This document shows positions 29,257-63,890 of a DNA stretch of 64,000 nucleotides, piece by piece. Below the pieces are notes generated by a model. That model did not search any database. It saw only the letters and a list, made by a program, of their open reading frames with translations, and was not told where the DNA came from. A program made the position numbers and the translations under genes. The number at the start of each line of letters is the position of its first letter. Position 1 is the first letter of the stretch. Origin of the DNA: Paraspadella gotoi (lineage: Eukaryota > Animalia > Chaetognatha); the NCBI GenBank assembly GCA_051294375.1, contig CM119268.1:10485607-10549606 (forward strand), written 5' to 3'.

Positions 29257-29295
<39 letters not shown>

Positions 29296-29860: not shown

Positions 29861-29946
<86 letters not shown>

Positions 29947-30480
29947 TCCGTTAATTGAATTCACTCTTTACTTGAAGGAAAATCACACTTTTTTAACTCG
30001 AATAGAAATTTCGTGACGCTCCGGACTCAGATCCGCGACCGCCTGCACACCCCAAACACGCCTCTTCGCCTCTTCGCGCCTTCGGGTGTTTACTCGCATT
30101 CCCCGACGCCCTCTACGACCCCTTCGGAGGCTTTCCCTTCGACCTTCGGACAGTTATCCTCCACCCGCCCTTTAAAATGTAATCGGAACCACCCCTCTCG
30201 CCCGGACCTTCCCTCGAGGGTCCACCGCCTCAAACGTCCACTGCGGAAACCACCACCCAGACCGTCACGCTGACACCACCACTCACCGTTTCACACTCAA
30301 TCCCTTCTCCAATTCGTTGTCGAAAACCGTTTGCAATTAGGCTTCACAACCGAGAGATTGGACGCGTGATTAGGGCTTCTTAGGGTGTAGGGTTTCTAGG
30401 CGTCAGCGGCCCGCAGGGATTTTTCTTCTTCGTCTTCGTCGTTCGTCATCATGTCTTGTTAGCAAAAGTTTGGAATCCAA

Positions 30481-30556
<76 letters not shown>

Positions 30557-32074: not shown

Positions 32075-32168
<94 letters not shown>

Positions 32169-37400: not shown

Positions 37401-37461
<61 letters not shown>

Positions 37462-39796
37462 AATATTTTCCGTTAATTGAATTCACTCTTTTACTTGAAT
37501 GAAATCACACTTTTTTAACTCGAATCGAAATTTTCGTGACGCTCTCGGACTCAGATCCGCGACCGCCTGCACTCCCCAAACACCCTCTTCGCCTCTTTCG
37601 CGCCTTCGGGTGGTTTCTCGCATTCCCCGACGCCCTCTTACGACCCCTTCGGAGGCTTTCCTTTCGACCTTCGGACATTGATCCTCCACCCGCCCTTTAA
37701 AATGTAATCGCACCACCTCTCGCCCGGACGCTCTCCTCGAGCGGTCTCCACGCGCGTCAACTTCACACTGCGGAAACCACCCACCCCGACCACCACTCAC
37801 CGTTTCACACTAAATCCCTTCTCCAATGTTGTTGTCGAAACCGTGTTGCAATTAGGCTTCACAACCGAGAGATTGGACGCGCGTGATTAGGGCTTCTTAG
37901 GGTGTAGGGTTTCTAGGCGTCAGCGCCGCGCGGGATTTTATTCTTCTTCGTCTTCGTCGTCGTCGTCATCATCGTCTTGTTACAAAAGTTTTGGAATCCA
38001 AAATTGAGAGAGAGAGAGAAGAGAGGAGAGAGAGAGAGAGATGAGAGAGGAGAGAGAGAGAGAGACGATGAGACAATGGAGCGTAAGCAGAAGGCATGGA
38101 GAACAAGATGAGCGGCCGGGCACGAGAGAGGTGGAAGAAGCTCGGCCTCGAAATACTAATGAAAGAATAATAAATACGACAACATAAAAGAACACTCAGT
38201 CATATCTTCTTATAAACACCTGTTCCGTTGTACTTTTCACATCTCCGGCCTTAAGCCAAAAGAGGGGATCACCAGCCCATCAACATGCTTGGAGATACTG
38301 TTCTCATTAGTACGTATGGTAGTCATATAATACTTCGTGCGGTCTTTTCGTCGTAGACGGACCGTCTTAGTTCCTAGATAAGGTATACGTAACAAATTAC
38401 CTATGCGACTTAAATTATCATCATCTTTATCTGATCATCAGTCAACGCGTATTTCAATGCTTGATGATGATCGTTATGTTACAGGATATTCTACTCGACC
38501 AAAATCCGGAGTAAAGTGAAGACGATTCAACCTCTCCACTCTCAAAGCGGTAGTCCGATCCAGGAAGAGAGCAGAGGAGAGGGAGACGATTCGTCTTTGT
38601 GATCGATGCATGTGTTTCTTTAATTTGACCTGTTTGTTGTTCATTATTTTCATTTGACGTTTTAGTCGAGCCAGGCCGCAATCAAAAAGGAAAAGAAAAC
38701 CGCGGAACTTTGAGCTTGTTAGTTAGTTACAGCTTTTTATTTCTTTAAAAAGCGGCGTACATTTTAAAGACGCATTGTTTCATATAGTAGATGTCTTCAT
38801 TTTCTTGGGCCAAACGATAATTCGCGAAAAACACGGTTTTAGGGTCATTATCCTTGCGCATTGGGCATTGCTTATTACACTTAAAATAATAAATAATTTA
38901 TTTACAAAAAATAAGGTTTTTTTCTCGATTCCTTTAAGTCAAATATAAATCGAGGTCAAAAAGCAATTTTGTTAGAAGATCAAAGGAATGTTAGTGTTCA
39001 AGGACGTCACGGTTCACCTACGAAAAATTTGACGTCCATAAATCATTTTAAAATATTTTCGAAGTTCGGTCGGTGGCTCAATAGCAAAATTGCCATTGGC
39101 AAAAAAAAAAAAAAGTACGCGCGCGTTAAATATTAAAAAAAAAACAAGATTAGGATGAAGTTTATTTCCAACAATTAATTAACATGAGGAATAAAACCAC
39201 TGTTGACAAGGTTGAGCGGGATCCTGCTAGTTTTAGGAGATATAGTAAGATTTAAGTAGTCGGTGAGCCCTATTACAGGACCAGTGTCTTTTTTCATTAT
39301 GTGTTAATTAATTTCTTACTACATCTTTTTTGGCCACAGGGAATTTCCGCAATCGCTCTTCTTAGTTTTGGTTTCTTGCATCTTATTTACCGTAATTATT
39401 TAATTTTTGTGGCGTTGGGTGATAAATGGTTACATTAATTGGACGGAAAAAATGTGTTAGGTAGCCGACGTTGAAAAAGCTTTTGGCTAAAGGTGACCGT
39501 AAGTTCCTTATCAATAGACATTAGACGCATGAGACACTGAGTTCGAATCGTCATCATCGCTTCCCTCTTTCCAACTTTGTCTTCAGGAAGGCAGCCTCCG
39601 TCTCGTAGGCGGCGAGTCCCGCGCCGAGGGCAACGTCCAGGTCTACCACTCCGGCGCCTGGGGAATTGTGTGCGACGACGACTTCGATATTTACGACGCC
39701 ACCGTCGTCTGCCGTCAACTCGGATTCTCTTCGCGAGACAGGCGCTCAAGAATTCTCACTTCGGAATCGGCTCGAGGTGAGAGAGAGAGGAGAGAG

Positions 39797-39862
<66 letters not shown>

Positions 39863-42800
39863 AGTGGAGAGAGAGAGAGAAATAGAGTAGAGAGAGAGAG
39901 CTTTTGCTTAATTGCTTATGGTCTGCAATGGTCGAAGAATAGGGTGTAATCGGGTCTGTCTGTCTGTCTGTCTGTAATCGTGGTTTGTCTTTCGAGTCAG
40001 TAATCTTCATTTCTTTAATGACCTTCAGACGCTTCTGGATTGACAACCTCCTCTGCGAGGGCGACGAGAAACGAATCTCGTCCTGCCGCTTCGACGGATG
40101 GGGTCTCCATGACTGCACCTTGAAGGAGGCCGCCGGCGTCAGGTAAGCATTCGTTTGTCGCGCTGCTTGACAGGTGCGTAACTGGTGAAAAGTGAACGTT
40201 ATTCTATCGTCCACCAAACCGCCAGGTGCAACGAGCAGATGCGAAACCGTAACAACACTTCCCGAAGTAGCAGCCGCACCGGCCAAAACGGTCGCGAAAG
40301 CTTAAGCGACGACGATGACGGAGGCAAAGCAGAGGCTTCATCGTCGTCGTTGTCAACGTCGTCGTCTACATCCTCACTGACGTCTTCGTCATCGTCGTCG
40401 TCTTCGAAGGCTCTCGTCTCGGACGAGGCGCTGCGGTCGCTCGAGTCGTCGACGATGACGTCGAGGAACTCCGACGGAGACTCCATCATAGACATCATGA
40501 AGAAGCTGCTGCTGGCAAGAAGGCGCCAGAGCAGGAGGAAGAGCGACGAATCGGCGGCGACGGCGACGACGACGAAAGGTTTGACATTTTATGAGATGGC
40601 GCTGCTTGAAATCAGAATTTTTGGCAGAGAAGCCGACGGATCAAGTTTTCTGTTTATAAATTTGTGATTTTTTTTTCATCGAAATTGTGTTAAAATTTCT
40701 TTCCGTTGCGTTTTTAGATTTTTTTTGGTTAATAAACAACGATTCTTTAAATAATATATCGTTGTTTATAATTATAAAGACAGCTATCATTTAAGGATGA
40801 AACTGCAAGCTGATAGGTTGATTCCGGTTCCATGCTTGACCAATCAGGATTCGGCGATTCCATTTCAGCGGAGATCGCCCGAGTCTCCGATCCGATTTGC
40901 TTTTGGTGGCTTGATACTCCTGCGATGCTATGAATAGATTTTATTCAAATTCTATATTTAGTTTTTAATTCTGGCTAACAACGATTAAAAAAATGTTGTC
41001 AATAGCCTGAATAGGTTAATAAAAAGATATAAAGCGACGGAGATTTGTTAAGAAACTCTGAACTTTGAAGTTAGAATTTTATTAATGCTCTTTCTATTTT
41101 AAATATATTTCAGCCGTCGCCTTCTCCTCTTCCTCTTCCTCTTCCATCTTCACAAACCCATTAGCTCCCATCTCTTCAACGAGGCCTTCATCGAGTCCTG
41201 GCTCTCCTCCGGTTGCTGCGTCAACGTCGGTAACTTTAGCAACGACCGTAGCAACGACGCCATCGACGACGTCTACGACGACGACGACGACGACGACAAA
41301 GTTGGCAACGGAAGCGACACTCGACATTCCCCTCATCTCCATCTCTGGCGTCGAAGAAGCCGACGGAGAGACGGAGAGCTCGATCCTCCAGCCGCCGCAG
41401 CCGGAGCAGCCGCGCAGCGGACCGCAGCCCCAAGGATCTCGCGGAATCTCTTACACGAACGACGACGGGAAGATGGAAGACGTCGTCGTCGAGGACGAAG
41501 ACGACGACGATGAGAACGACGACGCCGTCAACGAGGTGGAGAAAGCCACCGAGGACGGATTGGAGAAACTGGATGACACCTCGCTGATCAAGATCGAGGA
41601 GGAGGAAGAGGAGATGAAGAAGGAAGAGCTGGAGTTGGAGGAAGAGGAGGGGGTGTTCCTCGAAGACATGGATTATAAGAAGAAGAAGGTGGAGGAAAGG
41701 AAAGAGGGTGAGGTCGTGACAGAAAAAGAGGAAAAGAAGGAAACGACGGAATCTCCAACGGTTTCTCCACAATCTAGTCGAGACCCCGAGCGAACCACTT
41801 CCTTGCGGACGAGAGTCTTGGGCTCCGAAGCCGCCACCGGCCTCCAGGTAGTCGAGGTGGTGGTCGACGAAGCCGTCGACACCGTCCTTACCTCTTCGAC
41901 GCCGCGCGACGCCGCCGACGCGGAGACGGCGTCGAATCGCGTTCCCGGCGCCGACGTTTTGGGAGGTGGCGTCAGTGGCGGCGCCGACAGTATCTCGCCG
42001 GGGCAGACGGCGCGAGACGGCGCCTTCAACAGGATCGTGCCCAACAAGCGCGTCGGCGGCGTCGGGGGAGCGAGGGTAGGGATAAGTGCCGCTGTTGATC
42101 CGGCGAAGAAGAAGGTCCCTTGGGTCAAAGGTGAGGACAATCGAATCGGCCGAGGAATCGTTTTAGTTTAATTACATCAAACCTATTAGCTAAATCATTA
42201 AAACAATATGTAGATGGCGTGAAATGACGCCAGGCCGTATTAAGAACTTAGATCAACTTTGAACGTCAAACTTTACCGACGAAATTTACATAGTATTAAA
42301 AATATTTTGACGGTTTATATATTGCAATAACGATGACCAATATTGGTCTTCAGGCGAAGCGATGAAAGGCGTTCGCCTGACGAACGGGCGTCATGCGCAG
42401 GAAGGACGAGTCGAGGTTCTCATCGGGGGAAAATGGGGACTCGTCTGCGGCGACGGGTTCGGCATGATGGAGGTAAAGAAAAAAATTTGCATATTGCTGG
42501 AATTGTTGGAATAATTCTCACATTCATGTCAGCCTAATTAGTAATTACATGTTTTCTTTCTATGAAAATTTGATCTTCTGCACTTTCTCTTTGCGAGGAT
42601 TAGTCTTCATTTTTGTATCTAATACAAATTCTATCTTTTTCAAATTCAACCATTGTTTTTTATCTTATATTTTCGAATAACGAAATTTATCTATTAAAAC
42701 TCTGTGATTGCTTGTAATTGTCACTTTTTTTTTGAACAACAGTCATAGACCCATTCCACAATCCACATATTTTTGACTGTCACTCAAGTTTTCCCCCTCG

Positions 42801-45170
42801 TCTCCCCAAGGTGATCGTCATCTGCAAATCCCTGGGTCTCGGCGCGGGAGGCAATCCCGTGCAGACGACCTGGTGGGGAGGTGAGCTGGACGAGGTAGTC
42901 GTCAGCGGACTCACCTGCGGAGGAAAGGAAAGGTCGTTGGGCGAGTGTCGGTGGGACGAACCGGAACATACGCGGTGTCCGGGGAAGAAATCGATCGCCG
43001 GTGAGTCGGTGCGGGATGTGAGTTCGGGGGGGGGGTGCGGGAAATTGTAGGAAATGATATCCATTGTCATTATGTCATAATTGTATCGGTCAGAGGTAAT
43101 AAAATATTCCACAAGATTCTCTATACAATTTTTCTTGATAGTTTGCTCAAAGGAGTGAACTGTATTTAATGAACAGTGAACACCAAAAATTCTTATTCCT
43201 TACGCAAGATTATTTTTTCCAGGGGTAGCATTTGGATAAGACATATTTCTGACCCGTGATCACCCATCTCGACCTTTATTTTCTCCAGGCGTGGTGTGCG
43301 CCAACGACCTTCCCGATCTAATGCCCAACGGTCGTCTGCTACAGTCTCATATCTACTTGGAGGATCGACAGCTGTGGTACCTTCAGTGCGCAATGGAGGA
43401 GAACTGTCTCGCCTCGGACGCGTACCTCGTGCGTCAGAGGGAATACAACTGGGCCTATCACAACAGGCGGCTGCTCAGGTCATTAATATTAACATCCTGA
43501 TATAACAACGACACATCACAATCCGTTCCGACCAACAGGTTTACTTCAAGCATCTTCAACAACGGAACTCAGGACTTTCGTCCATTCATTCCGAAGCACT
43601 TGTGGCAGTGGCACATGTGTCATATGCATTATCACTCCATGGAGGTCTTTACTCACTACGACCTCTTCGAACCGAGGTTCGTGTTTGCGATGATTGATGA
43701 TGTTTGATTCTTTCTATTTTTTGTCCTTATTGGTTTAAGGCCCGATGAGATTTTGTACATTTATCTAATTACCATATTGCAGGCGTAGATTTTTGTCCTA
43801 CAAGTGTAAAAAAAAAACTGAATTAAAGTAAAGAGTTAGTGATAGGTTTCAAAAAGTAAAATAAGTGATTCATCAACAAATTTTAAAACGAGCCTTTAAA
43901 CGATAAATATAAAAGAAAATTAAATCCTGTTAAATTTCATCAGGTCGGGCGTCAAAGTCGCCGAAGGGCACAAGGCGAGCTTCTGCCTGGAGGATTCATC
44001 TTGCTCCGGTAACGCAAGAATTCGGTTTCAATGCGCCGGCTATGGTGACCAAGGAATATCGCCGGGTGAGTGATAAGGATGCACGGTGGGAGGGAAAGGA
44101 TGGGAGCAATGCCGGTTCATTTGTGGAATATCTTCGAAGTTCTATTCGGGATCTTTGAAAACTGTCGAAGTTCGTAAAATAATTCGATGTTAATTTTTAT
44201 TTTCTCGCGTCTTTTCCCTTTTTTTTCGTTTTATTTTGAATAATGCATCAAATTTGTTTCGCTTTGCATATAATTAAGACATTTTATTATTCTACCAAGT
44301 TATGATAATGGGGATATTAAATCGAGGGCGAGGCTACCGTATTTGTACAGAAACCGCCTACAGTTGGAGATATTGGAGAAAAGAGCATTTTTACATAAAA
44401 AGTAATAGTTATTTTTCTTAAAAATAGGTTTTTTTATTAGCTATTTTTCTCTAAAAATCAACATATACCGCCAACTCCGCTTCGTACTTCCAGACAATGA
44501 AAAAAGAAAAGGGAGAAAGAATGGGCGAACGAAAGGGAGAGAGTAAAGAGAGATAGAGAGAGACAGAGAAAGAAAGAGAAAGAAAGATAAAGAAAGATAA
44601 ATAGAGATAAATAGAGATAAATAGAGAGTTTCAAATTTTCAAAGAGTGAGACTCGCGATAGAAACGAATTCAACAAAAATACTTTTTCTACGTCCATTTC
44701 AACAATTGGTTCATTTGTTTAATAAACTCCATCCACCGAACAGGCTGCGAGGACACCTACTGGGCGAGCATCGATTGCCAATGGATCGATATCACGGGCG
44801 TCCTCCCCGGAACCTACATCTTCCGTGTCTCCATCAACCCCGAGTTCAAAGTCCCTGAGCGCGACTTCGACAACAACGCCCTCATCTGTCAGCTTGACTA
44901 CAACGGTGTCTCGGTCCTAGCGAGGAATTGCAGGTGGCGTATTATTGACTTTCTTTTTTTTTTTTTAGCTTATATAAGTTAGCGGCGAGTATTAAATTTT
45001 CTTTCACTTCAATATATATCTAAAGGCCCTTCTGTATGCTTGCTTATTTATATACGTATTAAAACACGAATTGTGCATTTTCGTTATATAGGCTTGGCCC
45101 CGTCGACTCGATGGAGTGGGCACCTCGAGGTTACACTCTTCCGAATCTGTGGCACACCTCGCGACGATGA
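26449..45170 (+). CDS. LOXL: lysyl oxidase-like protein: signal exon, SRCR, long Ser-rich/acidic linker, SRCR, LOX catalytic domain
   Basis: Putative exon 1 26449-26805 (hydrophobic leader, RRKR, phase-0 GAG|GTGAG donor) joins the SRCR exon [33 protein letters not shown] (39587-). SRCR2 VRLTNG..GRVEV. LOX domain [42 protein letters not shown] (Cu-binding His), [13 protein letters not shown] (LTQ Lys), GCEDTY (LTQ Tyr), [23 protein letters not shown]. Stop TGA at 45168-45170. The exon 1 assignment is less certain than the rest. Confidence 0.92.
28295..35889 (+). repeat. copy A of a ~7.6-kb direct duplication (LOXL intron 1 to the Cu-binding exon); frameshifted exons
   Basis: Collinear with 35915-43664; it ends abruptly at ...ACTCACTACGACCT next to the N gap. 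Confidence 0.95.
35890..35914. other. assembly gap (25 N)
   Basis: Run of N characters. Confidence 1.
35915..43664 (+). repeat. copy B of the ~7.6-kb duplication; continues into the unique 3' LOXL exons
   Basis: Starts with the same TTTTCGTTCGAGG..GAGTGGTTTCGCTTATCGGG as 28295; noisy at its start and clean toward its end. Confidence 0.95.
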
Positions 45171-45821: not shown

Positions 45822-47807
45822 TCAAAGCAAAACCGTAGCTGACAGGGGAGGCAAAACGCCAACCGGTTGTTGAGAGTACGTTTTCAAACCCATCGCCGCG
45901 CAAACCTGGTTGCAAGCGTGAGTCTGAAAAAACAGTTTGACTCCTTCTTCCGCCAGATTCATTTCCCCGAAGCGCGTCAACGCCTTGCTGTGAATCACGG
46001 GATCCGTGAGAACCACCGAGGTTCCGTTTTTTATCCCTTGAAGATCCACGACGATCAAGTAACCATCGGTGATGTCGTAGGTCCAGTGGCTGAAGGCCTG
46101 CATGGAGGCGCTGAAGTCTTCTTCATTGACCCAGCCCCAGTTGTTGTTGAACTTGCGATAGTCGCCTCCCATGTAGGGCTCCTTAGCGGAGTATGTCTCT
46201 TCGCCCTTAATGAAACGGACGAGCTCGCTCTGCAGGTAGGTCAGCTCCTTAACACCGTTTGGTTTGATTTTGTTGAAAACCCTAGCCATGTAGAATGCGA
46301 CAGCTTGAACCTCCATTTCGCAAAACAACTTCTGAAAAACTTGGTTTTTGCTTGATTTTCTCAGAAAACTTTTGATAACGCTCATCCGGTCTTCGTCTTC
46401 GCCGTCGAGCCGATCCTTGGCGTAAAAGGCCGCTTTGAAAGCGCCGTGGGCGAACGGACGTGGCGCCGTTCTGACGAGCCCCTTTTGGGTATTAATCTTG
46501 AAGTCGTTTCTGATAACGTACAAGACATGGGCTTTAATGTTGCCCGCAGGCTGAGGAATCTCGAACGAGTAAGACTTGTACTCTTTCTCCTCGATCGAGT
46601 TCCAATCATCGGGCATTTCGGTTACCAAGTCGACGGCGACGCGATCATCGACTCCCGGTCGCCGACTCGTGATTAGATCCTCGCTCGCGGAGATCGAGGA
46701 CGAAATAGTCTTCGAGATCGAATCTAGAAAGACGTCGAGAGACGCCGCGGGACACACATTGATCCAGCCATCGTCGCGGCGCATGATCTTTTTGAACTCG
46801 GAAATCATCTTGTCCGTGTTATTAGTGATTTTGAAGAACATGTAAGAATCAATTAGCTCTCGCAATCTCGGCAGCAAATCCTCGGCTGTCAATCCGTTGG
46901 GGTCACCGTCCTCGTGATCGTCCCGGGTCAAGTTGTGAAATCTCCTGCCGTGACACGGCGCGTCGGTCACGTGGAGAAGGACCTTCGTCGGAGAGCTCCA
47001 TCCTAATTCCGTCACCTTCTTGAATCCTCCAAAGACATCTTCGGGTCCATCGCCGCCGCCCGTCGCTTCCACGCCCGCTACGAACTCTTTGAACTCCTCG
47101 ACGGAATTCGTAAAGTCTCGGACTTCGAACTGGCCGTGAGACGAGCCCGCGTCGCAATGATCCCGGTAGGCGACCATGGCCAGATTCAGCTTGAGGTATA
47201 AATGCTTTTTCTTTAAATCGTCGACCAAATTCGTGATCTTGTCGCGGACTCCCCTGATATGACCGTCCATGCTGCCGGTGGCGTCAATAAGGAAACAGGC
47301 GTCGACGGTGCTCGCTCTTTTGATATTTCCAATCAGCTCCGCGATTTCTTGTCGACGTTCGAGAATTTTTTTATGCTTGAGCCTCTCCTTGAAGATGTCG
47401 TCCTCCAACATCTTGCTCTGGGCGTTTTCGGCCGCCGTGGAGTTTTCTAACCGGTTGTTTTCCCTCCTCAGCTGCTCCAACTTCATCCTTCGCTGCGCGT
47501 TCCTGTTCCCGGCCGCACGTTCTTGAAGCAATCGTTGTTTTCTCTCTTCCTCCTTTTTCTCTTCCAATACAAAGGCCTCGTCGACGCTGTCCAGAGGTTC
47601 TTCGCTGATCGTATTGAACATTAACTTCATGGCGCCGGCGGTATCGTCTTCCTCGCGGCGATCGTCCTCCTTCCGCCGCTCGTCTTCGCCTTTGAACTTC
47701 GACGAGTCGATGGCATTGAGCGTCAACCTGGCAGTACGAGGCCGAGGCTTTTCCCCTGATTTCAAATTAGCAAAAAGTTTTGCCAAAAATTCTTCTTTTT
47801 CCGCCAT
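45822..47807 (-). CDS. vWA-domain alpha-kinase (eEF2K/MHCK fold, VwkA-like) with N-terminal coiled coil; intronless coding region
   Basis: 661-aa ORF. vWA: DACFLIDATGSM (MIDAS), VAYRDH, GGGDGPED, VTDAPCHG. Alpha-kinase: PFAHGAFKAAF, VIK, EMEVQ, EPYMGGDYRKFNNNWG, QAFSHWTY, VVDLQG, LTDPVIH, FGEMNLAEEG, HACNQVC. Confidence 0.95.
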   Translation of the reverse strand: MAEKEEFLAKLFANLKSGEKPRPRTARLTLNAIDSSKFKGEDERRKEDDRREEDDTAGAMKLMFNTISEEPLDSVDEAFVLEEKKEEERKQRLLQERAAGNRNAQRRMKLEQLRRENNRLENSTAAENAQSKMLEDDIFKERLKHKKILERRQEIAELIGNIKRASTVDACFLIDATGSMDGHIRGVRDKITNLVDDLKKKHLYLKLNLAMVAYRDHCDAGSSHGQFEVRDFTNSVEEFKEFVAGVEATGGGDGPEDVFGGFKKVTELGWSSPTKVLLHVTDAPCHGRRFHNLTRDDHEDGDPNGLTAEDLLPRLRELIDSYMFFKITNNTDKMISEFKKIMRRDDGWINVCPAASLDVFLDSISKTISSSISASEDLITSRRPGVDDRVAVDLVTEMPDDWNSIEEKEYKSYSFEIPQPAGNIKAHVLYVIRNDFKINTQKGLVRTAPRPFAHGAFKAAFYAKDRLDGEDEDRMSVIKSFLRKSSKNQVFQKLFCEMEVQAVAFYMARVFNKIKPNGVKELTYLQSELVRFIKGEETYSAKEPYMGGDYRKFNNNWGWVNEEDFSASMQAFSHWTYDITDGYLIVVDLQGIKNGTSVVLTDPVIHSKALTRFGEMNLAEEGVKLFFQTHACNQVCAAMGLKTYSQQPVGVLPPLSATVLL

Positions 47808-48163
47808 ATTGACGCTTCAATGTTTACTCGTAAGATCGATCTAAACTAAAATTAAAAACCAAACTTAGTTAGATATCAGAATACACAATTCTATTTATAC
47901 AAACTATGAACCCAAAAACTAAATTATAATTGAAAAAAATTTCGTAATTATAATATTCAAATATTCACAAATGTGACCAGTATGTTCCTTCTGCTATCAA
48001 TGTTATAAAATTGACATTCAGATTTTAAAAAGCTAATCCTTTTTTTTTTAACCTAAAACACCCAAAAAATCTTTTAAATTTACATGTTATCATTTTTCAA
48101 ATTCTACAAATTCAATGTCTTTTTCAGTCACCCTTACAAGCATCGCTTCAGTCCCCGGACCAA

Positions 48164-49376
48164 TCAATCCTCCAACAATGCTTTCATCAACATGAGCATG
48201 GCCAATTTACTGGCATCACCCTGACCCTTAGGCGGTCTAATAACCGTCATGTTGTGCTGCTTGTGTCGATTCTTGTTGAAGCAAGTGGAACAAAGATCGT
48301 AATTGTCGCATTCGACGCACTTGAAGCGATTGCCGTACACCTTTCCAGAGCAGCCATCGCATCGAACTCCAGGATGACGACCCTCGGAAGAATCTTTCTC
48401 ATCCTCTTTGCCCCCACTCGTCTGTTCTTGCCTCCGATCCCTCGAGCACTGCTTGACAATATCCAGAGCTGTAGGCCGATCGTTTGGATCCGGCAGCAGC
48501 ATCTTCACGATCAACTCTCGCAAGGGTTGAGAGTAAAATCCGGGGAGAGGGTTGTCCGCTCCTTTCCAATTGACAGCGGGGAATTTAAGAAGGTGCTCCC
48601 CGTTGTTGCAGTAGAAAGCCATGACGGCGCCAAAGGACCAAATGTCGGCGGCGAAGCTGTACTTATTACCTAGCAGAACTTCGGGCGCCATGTAGATCAT
48701 TGTTCCTGCTTGGGTGTGGGCGTAGAATTTTGCCCTGTCGTCGGGGACTATGAGCTTGGCCAGGCCGAAGTCGCCTAACTTCCAAGAGATGCCATCTCCG
48801 TCATTGACCCCTGAAAGGCAGAAATAACCCTAATTAACCAGAAGAAAATGAATGAAACTGAAATAATGTTTTTCACCCAAAATGTTGTCCGGCTTGAGGT
48901 CTCGGTGCATGATGTGCTTCTCGTGCATGTAATGAAATGCGGAGGTGAGATGAGAAATGAAGCGCCACGTGTTAAACTCGGCACCGAGACCGCGACGCCA
49001 CCGCGCCGCGTCGCTCTCAAACTTTTCCACGTGTTTCGTCAAAGTGCCAAAGTTCGCGAATTCCATCAGGATGAAGATGGCGCCCTTCTTTTCAAAGGAG
49101 CCTTTGTACCTGAGATAATTGCTCTTTGATGACATGAAAAGGCGGATGAAAAGAGACATTACTGTGCCGCATTTACCCGATAATGTTGTCGTGTTCGCAT
49201 TCCTTGAGCACTTCAATTTCCTTCAGCGCAGATTTGTCCGGATTCTTCAAATGTTTTAAAGCGTAGGTCTGACCGTCTTTCCTCACTTTGTAAACAGAGC
49301 CGAATTGACCCTCGCCGAGTTTGACGGGATTTCCCGACGAGCCGAGTATCATGCTAACATCAAATTGCTTCGCCAT
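48164..49376 (-). CDS. Ser/Thr kinase (NEK-like) with C-terminal ZZ zinc finger, 3 exons (K1)
   Basis: LGEGQFGSVYKV, YALK, KEIEVL, FILMEFA, HRDLKPDN, KLGDFGLAK, GTMIYMAPE, ADIWSFG; then HPGVRCDGC..RFKCVECDNYDLCSTCF..H..HNM; ends LAMLMLMKALLED*. Confidence 0.92.
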
Positions 49377-49779
49377 GACAAAGGTTTGGCATTAAACTTT
49401 CTAAAAACAAGTTAGAGCAAACAATGTCGGATCTGCCCACGATCATTAACGGTAATTAATTAATTAATTAATAATTAAATAATTCAAATTAATTAAATAA
49501 TTCAAGTTAATTAATAAAGTAATTAGCCAATTAATTAATTAATTTGATCCCACATATTTGTTTTTAGGTCTTTTCGTCACTAACCACGACAAAAGCAATG
49601 ACGACGATGAGAATAATGCCGATAACGATTGACTTGATTGATTGACTGATTACTTAATTATGGAATAATTAATTGACTAATTGATTAATTAACTGATTAA
49701 TTATTTGATTAATTAATACATCTTGCATTTACATTTAATATAAAAAGAAAAAGAAGCATAATCACTTAGTGAAACAGTT

Positions 49780-50320
49780 TTTTTGTTTTTTTTATTTAAA
49801 ATTATTTCCACTCAAACAATTCCATTGAAACTTTATTTCCAGCTTAATCACACACTTTCCCACCCACATACAAAATTTCAGGTCAATCGCCCCATCCACT
49901 CATAAGCAATTGGTGTTCAAATAGTGAAATATATTTTTTTTTCCATTTAAACTCATTTCCACTCGGATGATTCCATTAAAACTTCATATCCACTATCCAG
50001 CTCAATCACACACTTTCCTACCCACACACAAAATTTCATTCCAATCTATCCATCCAATCACGAGTAATTGGTATTTTTTGCTAAGGTGGGACGGATGGAC
50101 GGAGGGATGGACGGACGGAGGGAGGGAGGGACAGATGGACGGACGGACGAACATCATCTTTTGTGCATAATTTATCATAATTCGATGTTCTGACATGATA
50201 TAAATGAGTGCCCGACAAGATTGAGGGCGGACTGGGGATTGGGCGGATTGGGGGCGGACCGACAGACCGACAAAGTGAATTATAGAGTCGGGATCTGCTG
50301 ATAAGCAGATCCGACTAAAA
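49780..50320 (+). mobile_element. non-autonomous Helentron/HINE (DINE-1-like) element between kinase genes
   Basis: Two ~150-bp internal repeats containing CAAAATTTCA..CAATC..CATCC, a (GGAC/GGAG)n microsatellite at ~50089-50150, and a terminal hairpin GTCGG(G)ATCTGCT..AGCAGATCCGAC followed by TAAAAA. Confidence 0.55.
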
Positions 50321-50537
50321 ATAAACGAAAAAAATTATTAACAAAAAGTAAACTTTAACAATTACTACCACATGTACAGAGAAAAGAAAAACTACTATCA
50401 ATTATCAATCAAATTATCAATTATTCAAATAAAGAAAGTCCAGGCAACACAAAGACTAATATTTTTCGTGTCGATAAATCCCAAAGTACGCTCGGTATTA
50501 TTTCTTCTATTAAGTTAAATCAAAACTTAACATATTC

Positions 50538-52365
50538 TCATTTAGAAAACATCGATCTCTTTTTGACCCTTTCCTTTTTTCTCATCTGGCGAAAAATCTC
50601 AATATCTTCTTCTTCGCTCTCATCCGTACTACTTTCTGTTTCCCTGTTTCGTGAACGGTCATCACGATTTCGACGACGTTGTCGATCATTGCTACGACGG
50701 CGTCTTCGGCGACGATCATCGTCGCCACGATGGTCACTCTCATCACTGCGATGTCCACTGGCGTCACGGCAATGGCTCGTGTCGCGCCGCCGATGTTTAC
50801 TATCATATCGAGGAAGATCCCGACATGTTCGTTCGTCGCGACATGATGATCTTCCATGACGACTTTCTCCATTACTTCCACTTCCCCCACTTTTTCTGCT
50901 GTCGTAGCCACTGCTTTTATCAGCGCAACAATTCGATCGTCCTCGCCGAACATAACATTTTCTGCAAAGATGATCATCCAAAGCTAAAGAAAGTTCTCTT
51001 CGGGATTTATCATCAGGCCTCTTCTTCTCTTTGGTTTTCAGTTCTAGTTGATCGAGACGAATACATATTGTAGCTAAGGTCCGTTCCATTACCGTCAAGC
51101 GATCTTGAGATTTAGCATCATTGGATAGTGAGCACAATTTATCTACGTCCTTAGCAGTCAGTGGATCACTCATGCCATTTCTTACTGCTTCGTCTTTTAT
51201 TTCACTACAAACATCGATGCCTTGCAGAATGATTGTCATTTCATTTTGCTTCCGATTGTTCAACCGAGTCACGCCAAGCTCTCCAAGGAAACCACCATGA
51301 CAGTACGGTCGTTCTTGTCTCTCTTCGCGCATACATTCCTGTAGAATGACAGCAGGACTCAGGCGCTCGTCCGGTTCCGGGAGCAACATTTTAGCAATCA
51401 AATCTCGCAAAGCTGCTGAGTAAAATCCTGGAATTGGTTTGACCAAACCCTTCCAGTTAATGGCTGGAAACTGTAGAAGATGTTGACCTTTGTTGCAGAA
51501 GAACCATAGAAGGCATCCAAAAGCCCAGATATCTGCGGGAAAGCTATAGTTATTTCCCAGTAGTACTTCGGGTGCCATATAAATGATGGTTCCGCACACA
51601 GTCTCGGGATAATTATTCTGAAAGAAATTGGCCAAACCAAAGTCACCCAACTTCCAGGTGATGCCATCTCTATTGCTAACGCCTAGGATATAAAAAATTT
51701 TAAAAAACGTTAAATACAAATATTAATGTGGAAGAGGAGGTTTCCTTCTCACGCAGTCACGCATGGGAAGCAGTTTATAACTGTTTTGCTCTTTTAATTT
51801 ATTAGTTCTTAGTTAAGATCTTACCCATTCAGCAGGTGTCGCTTCTTTTTTTTACCTAAAACGTTGTCGGGTTTAACATCCCGATGCATAATGCGCTTTT
51901 CATGTAGATATTGAAAAGCGGAAGAAAGATGAGTGATGAATCGCCAAACGTTGAATTCGGCACCCAAACCCTCGCGCCACTCAGTGTCATTTGATAACCT
52001 CTGCAAATGCCTCGTTAGCGACCCGACGTCGGCATACTCCATCAGAATGAATAACTCGTTTTCTTTCTCGAAAGAACCTTTGAACCTGCGGCAAAGTATC
52101 AAATGAATCAAATCAATTAATGAATCAATTAATAAATCTAAATATGGCGGTACCCGATAATGTTGATGTGTTGGCATTCCTTAAGAACTTCAATCTCGGA
52201 AGATAAAATCTTCTTGTCAAAATCTCTGAATTTTTTTAAAGCATAAATTGTTTCTCCTTTCCTCACTTTGTATACTTCTCCAAACTGACCACAGCCAAGT
52301 TTTATAGGTTTTCCCATATCGCTGAGAAAAATACTCAGGTCCAGTTGTGATGTCATGATTGTCAT
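50538..52365 (-). CDS. Ser/Thr kinase paralog with a different C-terminus (helical region plus Arg/Asp/Ser-rich tail), 3 exons (K2)
   Basis: LGCGQFGEVYKV, YALKK, SEIEVLKEC, FILMEYAD, GAEFNVWRF, HRDVKPDN, KLGDFGLA, GTIIYMAPE; same intron positions as K1; no ZZ finger. Confidence 0.9.
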
Positions 52366-52718
52366 TCAAAATGACAAATTAAAAATTATAGTTAAACTGA
52401 AATTAGAATAAACCGAAAGTAAATATTATACATAATTACATATACAACAATATACTATCCAAGACAAATGATAATGTAATTTGACTAAATATCGTCACTA
52501 TTTTTTGAAGCGCCATACCTATTATAGCTACCCTTAATTTTAACCATAATTTCGAAAAATAATTCCTAACTTCACCCGTAACTTCAAACCTCATCCAAAA
52601 CCCTAAAACTAATTCTAAATAGAAGCGGGGCACAAATATGAAATATACAAATAATAAAGAAAGCTTTCAATAAGCTACTATGGAACAAAATCTACATCCG
52701 ATTGATAAACTGTCTTTT

Positions 52719-54732
52719 TTAGTCCTCAAGCAACTGTTTCATCATCATAAGAAACGCCAAATTTTCGGCGGACACCATGGGCCGCCTTATGGCCACCATG
52801 TTGTGGTGGCTGTGAACGTTCCGATCGAAGCAGTCGGAGCAGAGATCGTAGTCGGAACACACCTTGCACTTGAAGCGGTTTCCGCGGACGTCGCCGTGGC
52901 AGAAGTCACACTCGATGCCCGGATGCAGGTCGGTGGTGGAGGAGGAGGAGGACGAGGAGGAGGAAGAGGAGGACGAGGACTCGGGCTGCCGTTGTCGACC
53001 ATCGTTGGAGCATTCCTCGACGATAACCTTCGCCTGATGTTGGAAAGTGAATGATTCATGAATTTTTTTTCTAATCAATCATTATCATCAATTGCTACAG
53101 TAATGACAAAAGTGAATTCGCGAAATGAGAACATTAAATGACACAGGAACAAAATTTATGAAAAGTCAATGTCAATACGACAATATGCAAATGAGATTGA
53201 TGAACTCAATCTCATTCTTGGTTGCATCAAAAGTTCCAAAATCCAATTCGCTATACGTAACTTTTAATAAATTCTAAAGCATTGAATTGTCCCACTCAGT
53301 CTCAGGCAGTCACGTTTTATGTACTATGTCTCCCACGCTTACCTCCAATCTCTCATCGGGATCGCCTTCCATCATTTTACTCAAGATGCGCTTGAAATCC
53401 GCCGAGAATCTCTCCGGTACCAGAGTCTTGCTTCCGGCTCCATTCCACCGAAACGCCGGGAGGTACTTGAGATGCTTTCCTCCCGCGGCGTAGAAACAGA
53501 GTACGGCGCCCAAAGACCAGACGTCGGCGGCGGCGCTGTACTGGGTCGGTTGGGATTAACTTAAATTTAAAAATAAAAATAACAGATTATATACGCCGTA
53601 GAATAAATCGTTGTAAAAAATCTTAAAAGCATAAGGATCGTCGCAATCGCATAAGAGAAATCTGGATTGACGAGAAATTTTGATACTAAAAAAATCAAAT
53701 TTGAGAAAAGAAAATTAATTTATAAACAGAAAGAAAAAGAAGAAAATAATAAATATAAAGAAAGAATAGAAAAGAAAGAAAGAATAGAAAGGAAAGAAAG
53801 AATAGAAAGAATAGAAAGAAAAGAAAGAATAAAAAGGAAAGAAAAAATAAAAAGGGGAAAAAAAATTTATAAACAGAAAGAAATATTCTATTTTGCAATT
53901 GTCAATTAAAAAAAATAATAAAGTACCAAGGAAAATTAAAGTTACAGTTTCTAAAAAAACAACAAAAAAAACAAACTTTTTCATTGTCAAATAAACTGAT
54001 CAGCAGACGCAGCCCCTGAGAAAAAAAAAAGAATAAATATAAAACAGAAAAATAACTTATTTTCGAGTTTAATTTTTAGCAAGTGCTAAGTCTGGACAGA
54101 CATTATTGAAGGTACTTTTGTTTTACTTTTAGCCCTCATAAGCGAGCAGTTTGCTCGAATGCGACCTCTCTAAATTTGGGAATAAATGGCAATAATAATA
54201 AAAAAAAAAATAATCAGAAAGAGAGAGAGAGAGAGAGAAAGAAGCCAAATCGTTTTCAGACGAATCAGCAGCGGCAGCAGCAGAGGCACCCAGAAAAAAA
54301 AAGAAATCAAAAGGCAGCAGCAGAAGCAGCAGGAGAAAAGAGAGAAAAAGAAAGAGCCCCTGCAGAGCCAGCTGCAGAGAAAGAAATCAAAAGGCAGAAA
54401 CAGCAGGAGAAAAGAGAGAAAAAGAATAAGCCCCTGCAGAGCCAGCTGCAGACTCGTTTTTTTCCCCTTTCTCTATGAATCAGTGACTAGGGAAAAAAGA
54501 GAGGGAGAGAGACATGTAATTAAAAGAGAAAAGAGAGAGAGAAAGAAATAGAAAAATAAAAGAGAGAAAATTTGTTTGTTTTGATAAAACGTAAACAAAA
54601 CATATTTAATAACTTAATTTAATAATTTTAAGCACATCGATGATGAGAAGCTGTATATAAATTTTCAGCTTCATACACCCAAATTTAATCATAAAAAAGG
54701 CGATCTATAATTTGGAACGCCGACGACAACAA

Positions 54733-54763
<31 letters not shown>

Positions 54764-56781
54764 AACGCCACTTATGCGCAAAAGCGTTACAATATCGTCG
54801 CAAACGCTAAGCGCTAAGCTAAAAGTATATATATATTTTTTTTCACAACAAAGAAGAAATTAACAAAGGTGGGAAAGGTTTCTGAAGGTACCATAAATAT
54901 TATATCAATATCATAGTTAACACCGTCGCAGCAATCTTGCTCCAATCACCTGATCTCCGTTAAGGACTTCCGGCGCTGCGTATGTCACGGTTCCGGCGCC
55001 GATATTCTCTTGAAACTTCTGCAAGGCGGCGCCGTCGACGAGTTTGATGAAACCGAAGTCGGACAACTTCCACTGGAGGCCGCCGCTGGACCTGTGGGGT
55101 AAATCTTCTCAATTTTCGCCTCTCTTTACGTGACTCATACTTACCAATCTGCTGTCAATAAGAAGTTATTACGTAATGAACTTAGTCGGACATTGCAACA
55201 AGTTCACCCCGCTTGTGAGCACGACTCCTTCGGTCGTGACCCGATGGCTCATTGAGTAATAACATCAGCTTTAACGTTCCTATGTTATACACCAGCAATC
55301 AAACACTTACCGTCCGACTCCCAAGATATTGTCCGGCTTAAGATTCTGATGCAGGATTCTCTTTTGGTGCATGAAAGCGACGCCTCTCGAAATGTGACAC
55401 AAAAACCTCCAAGTGTTAAACTCCGCTCCGAGACGGCGAGTCCATTCCCCCTCGTCGAAACGCTGAGAAATTAGTGTCAAGGAATTTAGTTAAAAGAAAG
55501 TCATACCTATTACAAAGAAAAAAAAACAAAAAAATACTGCGGGTCACGTTACCGCAGACCTGAATAAAGCTGGTCAGGGTCCCGACGTCAGCGAATTCCA
55601 TCAAAATGAAAAGTTTTCTGTCTTTTCGGTAGCAACTTTTGATTTCGATAACATTGTCGTGTTCTAATTCCTTGAGAATCTCAGCCTGAATGAAATTTAA
55701 GAAATTTGAAAACCCACTCACATTAAAAAACAAAAAACAAAAAAAAAAAAAAAACTAAAACCAAATCAATCAATTAGTAAATCAATCAATCAATCAATTA
55801 TTGTACAAATGAATAAAATAAAAAGATAAATCGAATAACCAATTAATTAATTATTTTTGAACGACGACGACATTAGACAAATAAGTTTTATACTGAAGAG
55901 ACAGTAATTATTGTTATATGTTAATGACAGAACCGCTCAATACAAGCAGTCCCTGAGCTTCGGATCAGGCTGTAACACCATGTTACAGGCGGGTTAAGCG
56001 CCCTGTCCCTCTTAACTGCTAGGCGACCACCGGGCTAGAACCCCAGACATTTGGGTTGGGAGGCGAATGACTTGCCTTCGGCACCAATGGCTGCTGATGA
56101 ACGGTTGGTGGATTTTAGTCCACCATACATCCCCCCCTCCCGTAGGGAGAAGTCTGTTGCGTCTCTTCAGTGAATTGTTGTTGTTGGTGGAAAGTTTGTC
56201 ACCAAGTTGAGGCATGTCGCCTGATGTGTTGTGGGCGGAAAGTGCATCGCCTGGTTGAGGCATGTCGCCTGAAAGTGTTGTTGTTGCTGTTGTGTTCGGA
56301 AGTCGGGCTCACCAATGAAGATACAGTAATTATTGTTATACGTTAATGACAGAACCGTCAATGTAAGCAGTCCCTGAGCTTCGGATCAGGCTGTAACACC
56401 GTGTTACAGGCGGGTTAAACGCCCCGTCCCTCTTAACTGCTAGGCGACCACCAGGCTGGAACCCCAGACCTTTGGGTTGGGAGGCGAATGACTTGCCTCC
56501 GGCACCAATAGCCGCTGATGAACGGTTGGTGGATTTTAGTCCACCATAATACCTAAAATAAAATTAATCTCTGAATTATAAAATAACCCAAAACGATGAT
56601 TCCATGAATCGGTGTTGAAACTTATAGTTTTGACCTCGTTAGACGCGACGATTCCCGGTTTGGAGATTTCCTTCAACGCCAAAGTCGTCGTTCCCTGCTT
56701 GACCTTGAAGACGGGTCCGAATTGGCCGTGACCCAGGACGAGCGGGTTCCCGTCGGATCCTTTGACGAAATCGACGGACAT
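52719..56781 (-). CDS. pseudokinase paralog (HRD replaced by HQN) with C-terminal ZZ zinc finger, 6 exons (K3)
   Basis: Exons ~56634-56781, ~55560-55685, ~55311-55463, ~54950-55091, ~53343-53540 and 52719-53033 give LGHGQFGPVFKV, LALKE, FILMEFAD, GAEFNTWRF, ILHQNLKPDN, KLSDFG, GTVTYAAPE, ADVWSLG, then HPGIECDFC..RFKCKVCSDYDLC; ends LAFLMMMKQLLED*. Confidence 0.88.
53600..54460 (+). repeat. A-rich 9-bp-period minisatellite, hairpin-ended repeat fragment and ~70-bp tandem duplication in a K3 intron
   Basis: (AAAGAATAG/AAAGAAAAG)n at ~53755-53850; CGAGCAGTTTGCTCG hairpin at ~54142-54157; AAGAAATCAAAAGGCAG...GCCCCTGCAGAGCCAGCTGCAGA occurs twice at ~54300-54452. Confidence 0.6.
55946..56019 (-). 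ncRNA. second copy of the candidate twister ribozyme in the 3' LTR (T1 pseudoknot mismatch)
   Basis: Same fold, but GA-CAG replaces GA-CGG, breaking the middle T1 pair. Confidence 0.45.
56367..56440 (-). ncRNA. candidate type-P5 twister self-cleaving ribozyme in the 5' LTR
   Basis: Minus strand reads GCAGUU AAGAGG GA CGG GGCGUU U^AA CCC GC CUGUAACA CGG UGUUACAG CCUGA UCCGAAGC UCAGG GACUGC. P5 = GCAGUU/GACUGC; P3 = CUGUAACA/UGUUACAG; P4 = CCUGA/UCAGG with loop UCCGAAGC; T1 = CGG/CCG; T2 = GC/GC; conserved UAA and GA present. P2 is short/bulged and P1 minimal. Confidence 0.6.
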
Positions 56782-56977
56782 TTTCTCCCCAGGGCGGTCG
56801 TCGTTGTTGTTATTGTTGTTGTTCAGAGTCGGAATCGTGTCGCGACTTTTGGACGAAGAGGTCAGACATTTCGGTTTTGAGGCGTCGCGTCAGTTGAAAA
56901 TCGTGCAGTGATGAAAAAAAAGTAATAATTTTGATTTAATTTTTTAAAATTTTTCCTATATTTCCTTTGTATTCGCA

Positions 56978-57036
<59 letters not shown>

Positions 57037-57578
57037 TGAAATATAGTAGTATTGTCGAGAAACTGCGTTCAAATTGTTTGCGCGCTAATTAAGCATTTCA
57101 ACATTTCAAGTTTGGCCAATGATAAAAAATAAAAAGAATATTGATAATAAATGTAAAAATGCTAATGATAATTTTAATAACACGTAATGTTTAATGTGAT
57201 TAGATCAAATTGATTTTTTTTTTTTTTTTTTGGCGAACCCACAGGCAAAAGGTTGATAAGGTTCGAATAGTCAGAAACCACGAAGATCGAAAATTAAATG
57301 ACGGAACTAATGGCAGAAACAGGAAAACCGGGCAACGAATATAAATTTGTGCGTCTATGAGACAGCAGTTTTGAAAGTATGTTTAACAATTTAAATTATA
57401 AGTTGATTCCATAAAATAAAAGAGATAAAAATATAAAATTCAACTTTAATTTTATATTTTAGAGTTTAGATTTAGTTTTTTCTTTTCAAGTTTCAGAAAA
57501 AACAAGGGATCCTCTTTTTCAGTTTAACTACCAAACTTTTCTTGTTTTTCTAACTTGACTAACTTGACTAACTTGACT

Positions 57579-57634
<56 letters not shown>

Positions 57635-58431
57635 TTCTTTGCCGACAAGCAAAACACATTTTTATTCACTAAATTTCATATATATATCTATTATCTAGGG
57701 TTAAAGAAAGTTTTTTTTAATGAATGGATTATATTTACATTGATTGTACCAATTTCATAATAAGTTCCATCTCATCTGATTCAAGATGAAGCACGTACAT
57801 GAACTTATATTTAATTTTTTTGAAAAATAATAAAGATTACTTTTTAATTCAAATATGAGACGGTAATGGCAATAAAAACATTAAATACATTCTTCTTATT
57901 TCAATATTGTACACAGCAGTGCACATATAAAAAACCTTTCGCAAATAATGATTACGAAGCAGATTTGTAATCATTGATCAGTCTCTTTGGACTTTGAACG
58001 GATATCGCTTAAATCAAACGTGTTCATTTGTTTCGACTTCCTATTATTACCGAAGCCGTAAGTGCCGAAACTGTCTGTGGGTGTAACTTTTCACGCTATT
58101 TTAAATGGCGTTTCGTCAAAACTTTTGAACTTGCAGTTAGTAGAAAGCAATTGATAACAATGGTTAATAAAGTGTTTCACATGTATTATTTTGGATATGG
58201 CTAAAGGCAAAAGAAGTGAAAAATAGGACAACCACTACGCGTCATACCGTAATTTATTTTCAAGAGTTTGTGTTTGTGTTCAATATTCATTTCATTCAAT
58301 TTCGTTTTTAGCTTTTCCCTTTTAGCTATTCCCTTGAATCAAAATGATTCATCTATTGACGTAATATAACTGATAACGCTAAGCGTCACGAGAGCTGCCG
58401 ATTTCAATTTTTTTAAATTTTTTTTTTTTTA

Positions 58432-63890
<5,459 letters not shown>

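Follow-up and report, generated by a model that had tools for sequence, protein, structure and literature searches.

A likely twister-bearing LTR retrozyme in a kinase intron of the chaetognath Paraspadella gotoi

A miniature LTR element lies within a protein kinase intron

We analyzed a 64,000-nucleotide stretch of Paraspadella gotoi DNA (contig CM119268.1, positions 10,485,607 to 10,549,606; hereafter the window), with a focus on a short element that occupies an intron of a protein kinase gene. The element (positions 55894–56548 of the window, minus strand) is a miniature non-coding long terminal repeat (LTR) element – a terminal-repeat retrotransposon in miniature (TRIM) – of 655 nt. Each of its LTRs holds a tRNA-like unit, referred to below as the head, and a motif that resembles a self-cleaving twister ribozyme. 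We conclude that the element is likely a twister LTR retrozyme. Table 1 gives the coordinates of its parts.

Consistent with its assignment as a TRIM, the element is shorter than 1 kb, has two LTRs, a primer-binding site, a polypurine tract and a target-site duplication, and encodes no protein. The LTR pair is 94.0% identical over 234 alignment columns (E = 2e-100), and no third LTR copy was found elsewhere within the window. The longest open reading frame (ORF) of the element that begins with ATG is 83 amino acids, and none of the 30 window ORFs of at least 150 amino acids appeared retroelement-like by eye (three were also run against Pfam). The primer-binding site fits the CsRn1-clade sequence TGGTGA(G/C)CCCG(T/A) (PMC2582038) and agrees in 12 of 13 letters with a tRNA-Trp complement given in the supplement of PMC10886601; what we say of these and all other cited papers refers to the accessible portions of each. 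The original prediction had described paired LTRs, an ATAC duplication, a tRNA-Trp-like primer-binding site, a polypurine tract and the lack of an ORF, all of which are borne out. The LTR termini are TA...CA rather than TG...CA.

Joining the exons on either side of the host intron (56634–55686) yields a continuous kinase N-lobe, and the downstream exons of the same gene match Pfam Pkinase and ZZ. As a separate observation, positions 56161–56169 in the internal region are perfectly complementary, over all 9 nt, to the LTR 3′ end; RNA folds did not predict this pairing (probabilities of 0.01–0.12).

Table 1. Features of the element and its host intron, in window coordinates
Feature	Position	Strand	Basis
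5′ LTR, 233 nt, termini TA...CA	56316..56548	-	LTR alignment; sharp family ends
3′ LTR, 234 nt	55894..56127	-	LTR alignment
Target-site duplication ATAC, 5′ side of element	56549..56552	.	sequence
Target-site duplication ATAC, 3′ side of element	55890..55893	.	sequence
Perfect 7-bp hairpin at LTR 5′ end (same hairpin in 3′ LTR)	56527..56546	-	sequence
Primer-binding site for tRNA-Trp, 13 nt, one base past 5′ LTR	56302..56314	-	published primer-binding site matches
Internal region, 188 nt, non-coding, short direct repeats	56128..56315	-	sequence
Polypurine tract, 12 nt, 2 nt ahead of 3′ LTR	56130..56141	-	sequence
tRNA-like unit, 5′ LTR, 72 nt, 7-bp acceptor-like stem	56444..56515	-	shuffles
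tRNA-like unit, 3′ LTR	56023..56094	-	shuffles
P5-permuted twister motif, 5′ LTR	56366..56441	-	pattern, descriptor, Rfam consensus comparison
Twister P5, 5′ LTR, 6–7 bp	56441-56435 with 56372-56366	-	
Twister P2′, 5′ LTR	56432-56429	-	
Twister general-base G and following A, 5′ LTR	56428, 56427	-	
Twister T1′, 5′ LTR	56426-56424	-	
Twister P1 linker, 5′ LTR, 6 nt	56423-56418	-	
Twister U^AA, 5′ LTR	56417-56415	-	
Twister P2, 5′ LTR	56414-56412	-	
Twister T2 GC, 5′ LTR	56411-56410	-	
Twister P3; P4/L4, 5′ LTR	56409-56391; 56390-56373	-	
Predicted cleavage site, 5′ LTR	56416..56417	-	inferred from twister homology (U^A; PMC8501958)
Twister motif, 3′ LTR (private T1 mismatch 56004; self-complementary P1 linker 56002-55997)	55945..56020	-	
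Predicted cleavage site, 3′ LTR	55995..55996	-	inferred
Predicted unit-length RNA, 421 nt	55996..56416	-	computed length
Host intron, GT...AG, phase 0, protein kinase-ZZ gene; element in sense orientation	55686..56634	-	exon joining; Pfam

Each LTR carries a P5-permuted twister motif

On the minus strand, the LTR motif reads in the order P5 – P2′ – GA – CGG – 6 nt – UAA – CCC – GC – P3 – P4[UCCGAAGC] – P5′. Both LTRs thus have the order of a type-P5 twister together with its catalytic letters (GA, U^AA, GC and UCCNAAGC), which are common to the family described below. Pseudoknots T1 and T2 and helix P4 are complete in the 5′ LTR; the 3′ LTR carries a T1 mismatch. The roles given here to individual residues follow the twister literature, and we compared them with the printed Rfam consensus. 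The original prediction had proposed this permuted order, the availability of both pseudoknots in the 5′ LTR and scissile positions at 56417/56416 and 55996/55995; the order and the pseudoknots hold, and the two predicted sites are 421 nt apart by computation. Its P5 helix is present as well, with the extent corrected to 6–7 bp.

We estimated how often such a motif would arise by chance with a descriptor looser than the motif itself (P1 linker of 3–20 nt, P2 of 3 or 4 nt, P4 of at least 3 bp, P3 and P5 not required). It matched twice in 83.8 Mb of null sequence with LTR composition and twice in 105.6 Mb with window composition – overall about 0.02 matches per Mb. None of the matches in the LTR null, where this was scored, combined a P4 of 5 bp with a P3 or P5, as the real site does. 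The descriptor was composed after the motif had been seen, so its null rate is a bound on chance rather than a blind test. It recovered 10 of 14 P5 twisters scored by Rfam, and among loci that matched the conserved words only it accepted 0/120 when P4 was at least 4 bp and 1/120 when P4 was at least 3 bp.

For comparison with the LTR motif, natural P5 twisters were fetched from phage contigs by pattern. Fourteen of 20 such loci scored as Twister-P5, 13 of them above the gathering score. Order and conserved letters are alike between the LTR motif and the Rfam Twister-P5 consensus, and the motif has 17 of the 18 columns that are invariant across the 13 Rfam-scored loci (the eighteenth is an A-U pair in P4), an agreement that is partly circular because the fetching pattern fixed most of these letters. 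When a model built from the 13 phage loci was run on the 64 kb window, the two LTR sites ranked 1 and 2 of 11 matches. None of 53 loci from a metagenome scan for the motif passed the descriptor (0/53) or appeared element-like by BLAST, the family linker had 0 matches when viruses were scanned for it, and none of 119 loci from a genome-contig scan for short-P1 twisters passed.

The element belongs to a dispersed multi-copy family

Parts of the element are present in 11 public runs from five studies, nine of them from one organism (organism A). Contigs placed on the element numbered 10,881 in run X1, 2,480 in X5 and 1,087 in X9. The summed contig depth in X1, which should not be read as a copy number, was ~10^5 to 10^6 inside the element versus 23–48 on its flanks. 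At least 92 + 22 X1 contigs leave the element at its left end and at least 55 + 43 + 24 + 31 at its right end (counted in 19 of 703 loose-end rows), and the family flanks at these junctions are unrelated and AT-rich. Sharp ends with unrelated flanks were found at both termini in X1, X5 and X9; X2 showed them for the right end of the element. X1 may be the sample from which the window derives, but X5 and X9 come from studies other than that of X1 and have the same element ends. The run search listed no RNA run that contains the element; X9 is RNA by guess only, has many genomic-looking flanks and was not used as evidence of expression. The element is therefore one copy of a multi-copy dispersed family with many insertion sites. 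Loose-end counts and the flank consensus suggest that the family has termini TA...CA and prefers the target R-T-A-Y.

Coverage was thinner in the remaining runs. X10 (organism B) reaches no more than the LTR 3′ end and some of the internal region, X11 contributes one contig of depth 2 with three differences and could derive from the same organism, and no contig of X12 or X13 was placed on the element.

Variation among family copies was read from X2 over an assessed stretch of about 56391–56500 (40 of 55 variant rows) and from a table for X1, X5 and X9 (40 of 85 rows). Among these X2 rows there is no variant at the cleavage site, at the next two A's or at GA; T2 varies by 1.6%, and there is no indel at 1% or more. 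Seven sites vary by at least 10%: the loop of P3 and its closing pair (the pair being broken), the P5 end, two pairs of the acceptor stem, one of the T stem, and position 56500. None of the seven falls in the twister core, and in P5 and in the acceptor and T stems (four sites) the predominant variants preserve the pair as G-U. Compatible changes in the family are one-sided only, no motif-bearing homolog from another named organism was seen, and the youth of the family precludes a covariation test. The test of family copies proposed with the original prediction thus finds the core letters conserved without two-sided covariation.

A tRNA-like head precedes the twister motif in each LTR

Directly upstream of the twister lies the head, which in the 5′ LTR has an A-box-like word at 56507 and a B-box-like GGTTC at 56463. 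The distance from A box to GGTTC is 44 nt in both LTRs, and GGTTC lies at the tRNA spacing found for the Helenus box B. The head geometry, by criteria set post hoc, was reproduced once among 3000 shuffles of the 5′ LTR and 17 times among 3000 of the 3′ LTR; the box pair occurred in 97/2000 and 13/2000, respectively. In folds of the isolated LTRs the acceptor-like stem has a probability of 0.93 and 0.97. The D and anticodon arms have been lost, and neither ARAGORN nor Rfam called a tRNA in the head. Its A box has one mismatch to a looser A-box pattern. We consider the head a likely RNA polymerase III (Pol III) promoter, judging from these boxes and their spacing.

A tRNA-like unit within the LTR is the mark of Helenus TRIMs, whose animal members have a 4-bp target-site duplication and a gypsy helper and for which an origin by insertion of a short interspersed nuclear element (SINE) into an LTR has been proposed (PMC10886601). 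Pol III transcription of Helenus is itself unvalidated (PMC10886601). The accessible portion of that paper mentions twister 0 times and ribozyme once, in the reference list, and describes no ribozyme for Helenus. Four twister L4 words gave 0, 0, 0 and 1 matches in the accessible supplement, whose 70-letter lines limit matching; the single match lies in an internal region.

By eye, the consensus LTRs of two wasp elements with a tRNA-Trp primer-binding site, Helenus-2_SyJa and Helenus-2_SyUm (PMC10886601 DataS1), appear to hold a complete type III hammerhead directly past the head. In these LTRs we noted a GUC triplet, the words CUGAUGA and GAAAC, three stems, and 11 nt of complementarity between loops I and II. 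We assessed them against the consensus features of the hammerhead. Read in this way, Helenus-2_SyJa and Helenus-2_SyUm would be animal hammerhead LTR retrozymes. The accessible portion of PMC10886601 does not mention a hammerhead in either LTR.

The twister motif has a minimal P1 with putative natural counterparts

Three flaws of the motif had been noted at the outset: a tiny P1, an imperfect P2 and a T1 mismatch in the 3′ copy. The last is real and private to the window copy, since the pairing letter makes up 97–99% of summed contig depth in X1, X5 and X9; it is not a family feature.

For P2, which here has a 3-nt strand that forms two pairs and either a C-A mismatch or a bulged A, a phage scan for the 3-nt form returned 99 loci with 57 descriptor parses of that form. 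Ten loci of this form whose P1 is an ordinary long hairpin were run on Rfam, and all 10 exceeded the Twister-P5 gathering score. The 3-nt strand is thus a natural form of P2, and the C-A mismatch or bulged A stays as a flaw. Among ~2,600 natural type-P1 twisters tested, ~94% were active (PMC11662667); flaws in P1 or P2 occurred without loss of cleavage, and flaws in the pseudoknots or catalytic residues lowered it (PMC11662667).

The concern over P1 stands: a 6-nt linker takes the place of the hairpin. In most family copies this linker is self-complementary, as is that of the window copy's 3′ LTR. The letter at 56419 that completes the palindrome makes up 99% of depth, and the letter found there in the window's 5′ LTR is private. 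Two copies of the self-complementary linker are predicted to form a 6-bp duplex of -8.3 kcal/mol; in cis the linker offers one G-U pair. This modeled duplex suggests that the two LTR ribozymes may cut as a pair. With one private flaw in each ribozyme, the window copy may be weakened.

Two IMG/VR phage contigs, L279 (1–235) and L345, have a P5-closed twister-like motif whose P1 linker is 6 nt long; Rfam recognizes neither. Going by their sequences, they would be natural analogues of the short-P1 design. Four further candidates for short-P1 twisters were rejected, L241 and L251 because they are tandem type-P1 twisters and L167 and L272 because their P1 is long in another register. Apart from this question, L241 (79–178) and L251 each hold two head-to-tail type-P1 twisters ~50 nt apart, and seven other phage contigs (L256, L271, L297, L313, L322, L329 and L341) each hold multiple P5 twisters, with as many as five within 1.6 kb. 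P2 in the twisters of those seven contigs is mostly 3 bp, versus 4 bp in the Rfam consensus.

A proposed retrozyme cycle

We propose that the element, with a head and a twister in each LTR of a multi-copy family, works as a retrozyme: its transcript would be cut twice to give a 421-nt circle that a gypsy-type helper copies. We put the probability of this reading at roughly 60%. Transcription would start from the A/B-box-like head at ~56515 or result from read-through of the host intron. Cleavage would then follow at the U^A of both LTRs. P1 would consist either of a single G-U pair that closes a 4-nt loop or, with greater efficiency, of the 6-bp duplex that the two self-complementary LTR linkers form with each other. 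The double cut would leave 421 nt without a terminal repeat, and ordinary strand transfer would therefore be impossible. In the P5 permutation, helix P5 would keep the 5′-OH end next to the cyclic-phosphate end, ready for an RtcB-type ligase. On the resulting circle, tRNA-Trp would prime reverse transcription round the template and so regenerate two LTRs, and a CsRn1-clade integrase would insert the element DNA with a 4-bp duplication.

Several of these steps have precedents. Loss of the R repeat and a circular template have been proposed for plant retrozymes (PMC4918200), RtcB circularises animal retrozyme monomers in vitro and dimeric hammerheads share a weak helix (PMC7229834), and the CsRn1 clade combines a tRNA-Trp primer-binding site with a 4-bp target-site duplication (PMC2582038). 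By this analogy, a CsRn1-clade element is the likely helper. Predicted folds are consistent with the scheme: in a 622-nt precursor the pair probabilities of P3, P4 and P5 are 0.88–0.93 in the 5′ LTR and 0.51–0.85 in the 3′ LTR, and P5 across the monomer ends has a probability of 0.53 in the linear and 0.70 in the circular RNA.

A bolder version of this proposal is tentative, and we think it has a minority chance of being right. Here the element would be a Pol III-headed animal LTR retrozyme that runs on a double twister, in which an efficient cut needs the paired P1 linkers of both LTRs, and it would join the wasp Helenus-2 elements in an unrecognised animal group of TRIMs with a tRNA head and a ribozyme of interchangeable class. 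Only transcripts that span both LTRs would then be processed, each into exactly one unit-length RNA with P5-aligned ends.

Evidence against the retrozyme interpretation, and its rivals

A number of observations weigh against the retrozyme interpretation. In place of the P1 hairpin of RF02684 there is only the 6-nt linker. Rfam searches of 54000–58500, 56340–56470 (131 nt) and 56005–56127 gave no twister, tRNA or hammerhead match; the twister models, whose use on the minus strand had been proposed as a check of the original prediction, gave none at E values up to 10 and no score at the gathering level. We attribute this to the 6-nt linker in place of an 8-bp P1 hairpin, the inserted 19-nt P3 and the 3-nt P2 strand. 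Even the model built from the phage loci aligns only the P3/P4/L4 part (13 bits, E = 0.13). Within the family, the avoidance of the core by the seven variable sites is not significant because the sites are so few, CpG sites of the core decay by 1.6–7.4% as do many outside it, and no two-sided compensatory change was seen in the per-site tables of this one young family. P4/L4 lies outside the stretch assessed in X2 and has no entry among the 40 of 85 rows for the other runs. The T arm of the head is not predicted in its register by RNA folding, and the A box reads TGGTG and AGG where Helenus has TRGCY and YGG. The lack of a four-T run on the sense strand is not significant (546/5000 shuffles). 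Minimum-energy folds lack P2 as drawn and lie 7–10 kcal/mol below the pseudoknot-free active fold, and the 421-nt circle has no extra stability (z = -0.12 versus 100 shuffles), unlike plant retrozyme circles. The published tolerance of P1 flaws comes from type-P1 twisters, in which a missing P1 leaves free ends rather than a 6-nt loop (PMC11662667). The LTR architecture and the twister reading of the original prediction thus stand, without the covariance-model match and the two-sided covariation.

Three rival explanations have to be set against the retrozyme reading. It is unlikely, in our view, that the element is a Helenus-like TRIM that captured a SINE-type cassette of head and twister and replicates by the standard linear route with the ribozyme as an inert passenger. 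The missing Rfam match and covariation, a P1 cut to 6 nt and a flawed P2 family-wide, and the SINE-into-LTR origin proposed for Helenus (PMC10886601) would all fit such a passenger, and a young family conserves everything alike. However, every catalytic letter is intact in the common family state, as are both pseudoknots and three perfect helices, while the adjoining head has lost its D and anticodon arms. T1 is moreover complementary on both sides as CCG/CGG, though the Rfam consensus is CCC/GGG, and phage loci L279 and L345 have the same short-P1, P5-closed design. That the twister-like words are a mere chance arrangement among LTR hairpins is highly improbable. The null rate of ~0.02 descriptor matches per Mb, with the extra helices absent from all matches scored for them, argues against it, as does the position of the motif directly past the head, where the wasp Helenus-2 LTRs hold a hammerhead; for it speak the lack of covariance-model support and a descriptor composed after the motif had been seen.

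The third rival accepts an active twister, albeit a slow one whose main role would be to form 3′ ends, as a substitute for an oligo-T terminator; transcripts cut at the 3′ LTR only would replicate as ordinary linear LTR templates, and circles would be by-products. We regard this as quite improbable. An RNA cut only in the 3′ LTR would keep a 99-nt terminal repeat (56515–56417), and a one-pair P1, a flawed P2 and competing folds could make the ribozyme slow. By eye, a T run lies directly past the tRNA-like unit in most of the Helenus LTRs inspected (PMC10886601 supplement) and is absent from the window LTR and the two wasp hammerhead LTRs, and the circle is not unusually structured. However, because the LTRs are identical at insertion, their cutting rates should be equal, and cuts at the 3′ site only would then make up at most about a quarter of transcripts. 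The shared palindromic P1 would likewise favor a simultaneous double cut. Taking these points together, we retain the retrozyme reading. The element is a TRIM with a twister-like motif outside RF02684 and a Helenus-like head, and its way of working is most likely that of a retrozyme.

Neighbouring genes in the window

The host gene is the first of three related protein kinase genes clustered at 48164–56889 (minus strand), two of which encode a C-terminal ZZ finger; the element lies in an intron of that first gene. At 45822–47816 (minus strand) is a single-ORF gene for a VWA and alpha-kinase protein of 664 amino acids. Its relatives are distant only (26–42% identity) and occur in nematodes, glomeromycete fungi, amoebae, ciliates and oomycetes, a patchy distribution that possibly reflects horizontal transfer. 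An uninterrupted ORF of 1260 amino acids at 16171–19953 (plus strand) is receptor-like, with EGF and weak SEA matches, a cysteine-rich tail and, by eye, VWA-like, ZP-like and sushi-like stretches; it has almost no database relatives apart from one weak echinoderm EGF match. Its EGF and SEA matches point to an animal host. Finally, 28295–43664 is a tandem segmental duplication (~7.7 kb) with 93% identity over 5.4 kb.

Relation to known systems and implications

The closest parallel in architecture is with plant LTR retrozymes (PMC4918200), which are likewise non-coding, with two LTRs, a primer-binding site, a polypurine tract, a 4-bp target-site duplication and one self-cleaving motif per LTR – in our element recognized as a motif. 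As we propose for our element, a double cut removes the R repeat there and so requires a circular template, and the helper is of gypsy type. The plant elements differ in having a type III hammerhead rather than a P5 twister motif, a tRNA-Met rather than a tRNA-Trp primer, and a highly paired monomer of 600–1000 nt rather than one of 421 nt that is not unusually paired. A tRNA-like head in the LTR sets the present element apart, as does its likely animal host.

With Helenus and TRIMp3 (PMC10886601) the element shares a length below 1 kb, a tRNA-like unit with a GGTTC B box in each LTR, the 4-bp duplication of animal Helenus and a gypsy-type primer-binding site, which includes tRNA-Trp among Helenus elements; some Helenus LTRs also start with TA. 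It differs by its more degenerate head and by the twister that stands in place of the T run behind it. CsRn1-clade Ty3/gypsy elements such as PwRn1 and AgCR (PMC2582038) have the same tRNA-Trp primer-binding sequence and a 4-bp duplication, and unlike our element they are autonomous and protein-coding.

On the ribozyme side, the motif agrees with RF02684 in its order, in GA, GG, UAA, GC and UCCNAAGC, and in its intact T1, T2 and P4, and its 3-nt P2 strand is found in many phage members. It departs from RF02684 in the self-complementary 6-nt linker versus a P1 hairpin of ~8 bp, in the inserted 19-nt P3, in T1 as CCG/CGG and in a score below any Rfam threshold. The T-variant twisters of Perere-3 in Schistosoma mansoni (PMC8501958) are also reduced-P1 twisters in an animal retroelement; they are type-P1 twisters of a non-LTR element, in which a single cut sets the 5′ end without a unit-length RNA. 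Animal non-LTR retrozymes and their dimeric hammerheads (PMC7229834) offer a small ribozyme-bounded unit with RtcB-ligatable ends and a weak helix rescued by pairing two copies. These retrozymes use hammerheads, occur in tandem arrays and lack LTRs, primer-binding site and polypurine tract.

In the accessible portions of the literature, LTR retrozymes are confined to plants and hammerheads, and animal retrozymes lack LTRs (PMC6765202, PMC7761336, PMC11722881, PMC10085705, PMC12859917); twisters in retroelements are limited to the non-LTR Perere-3 (PMC8501958). We found neither a twister-bearing LTR element nor a described ribozyme-bearing Helenus in the literature searched, which was mostly open-access, in keeping with the remark in the original prediction that such an element was not known to have been described.

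Most eukaryotic twisters are without a known job. If our interpretation is correct, circle-based LTR retrotransposition would depend on the cut and not on the class of ribozyme that makes it, and would exist outside plants. The element would join two described groups, the retrozymes and the Helenus TRIMs, and we predict that other TRIMs hide ribozymes missed by Rfam.

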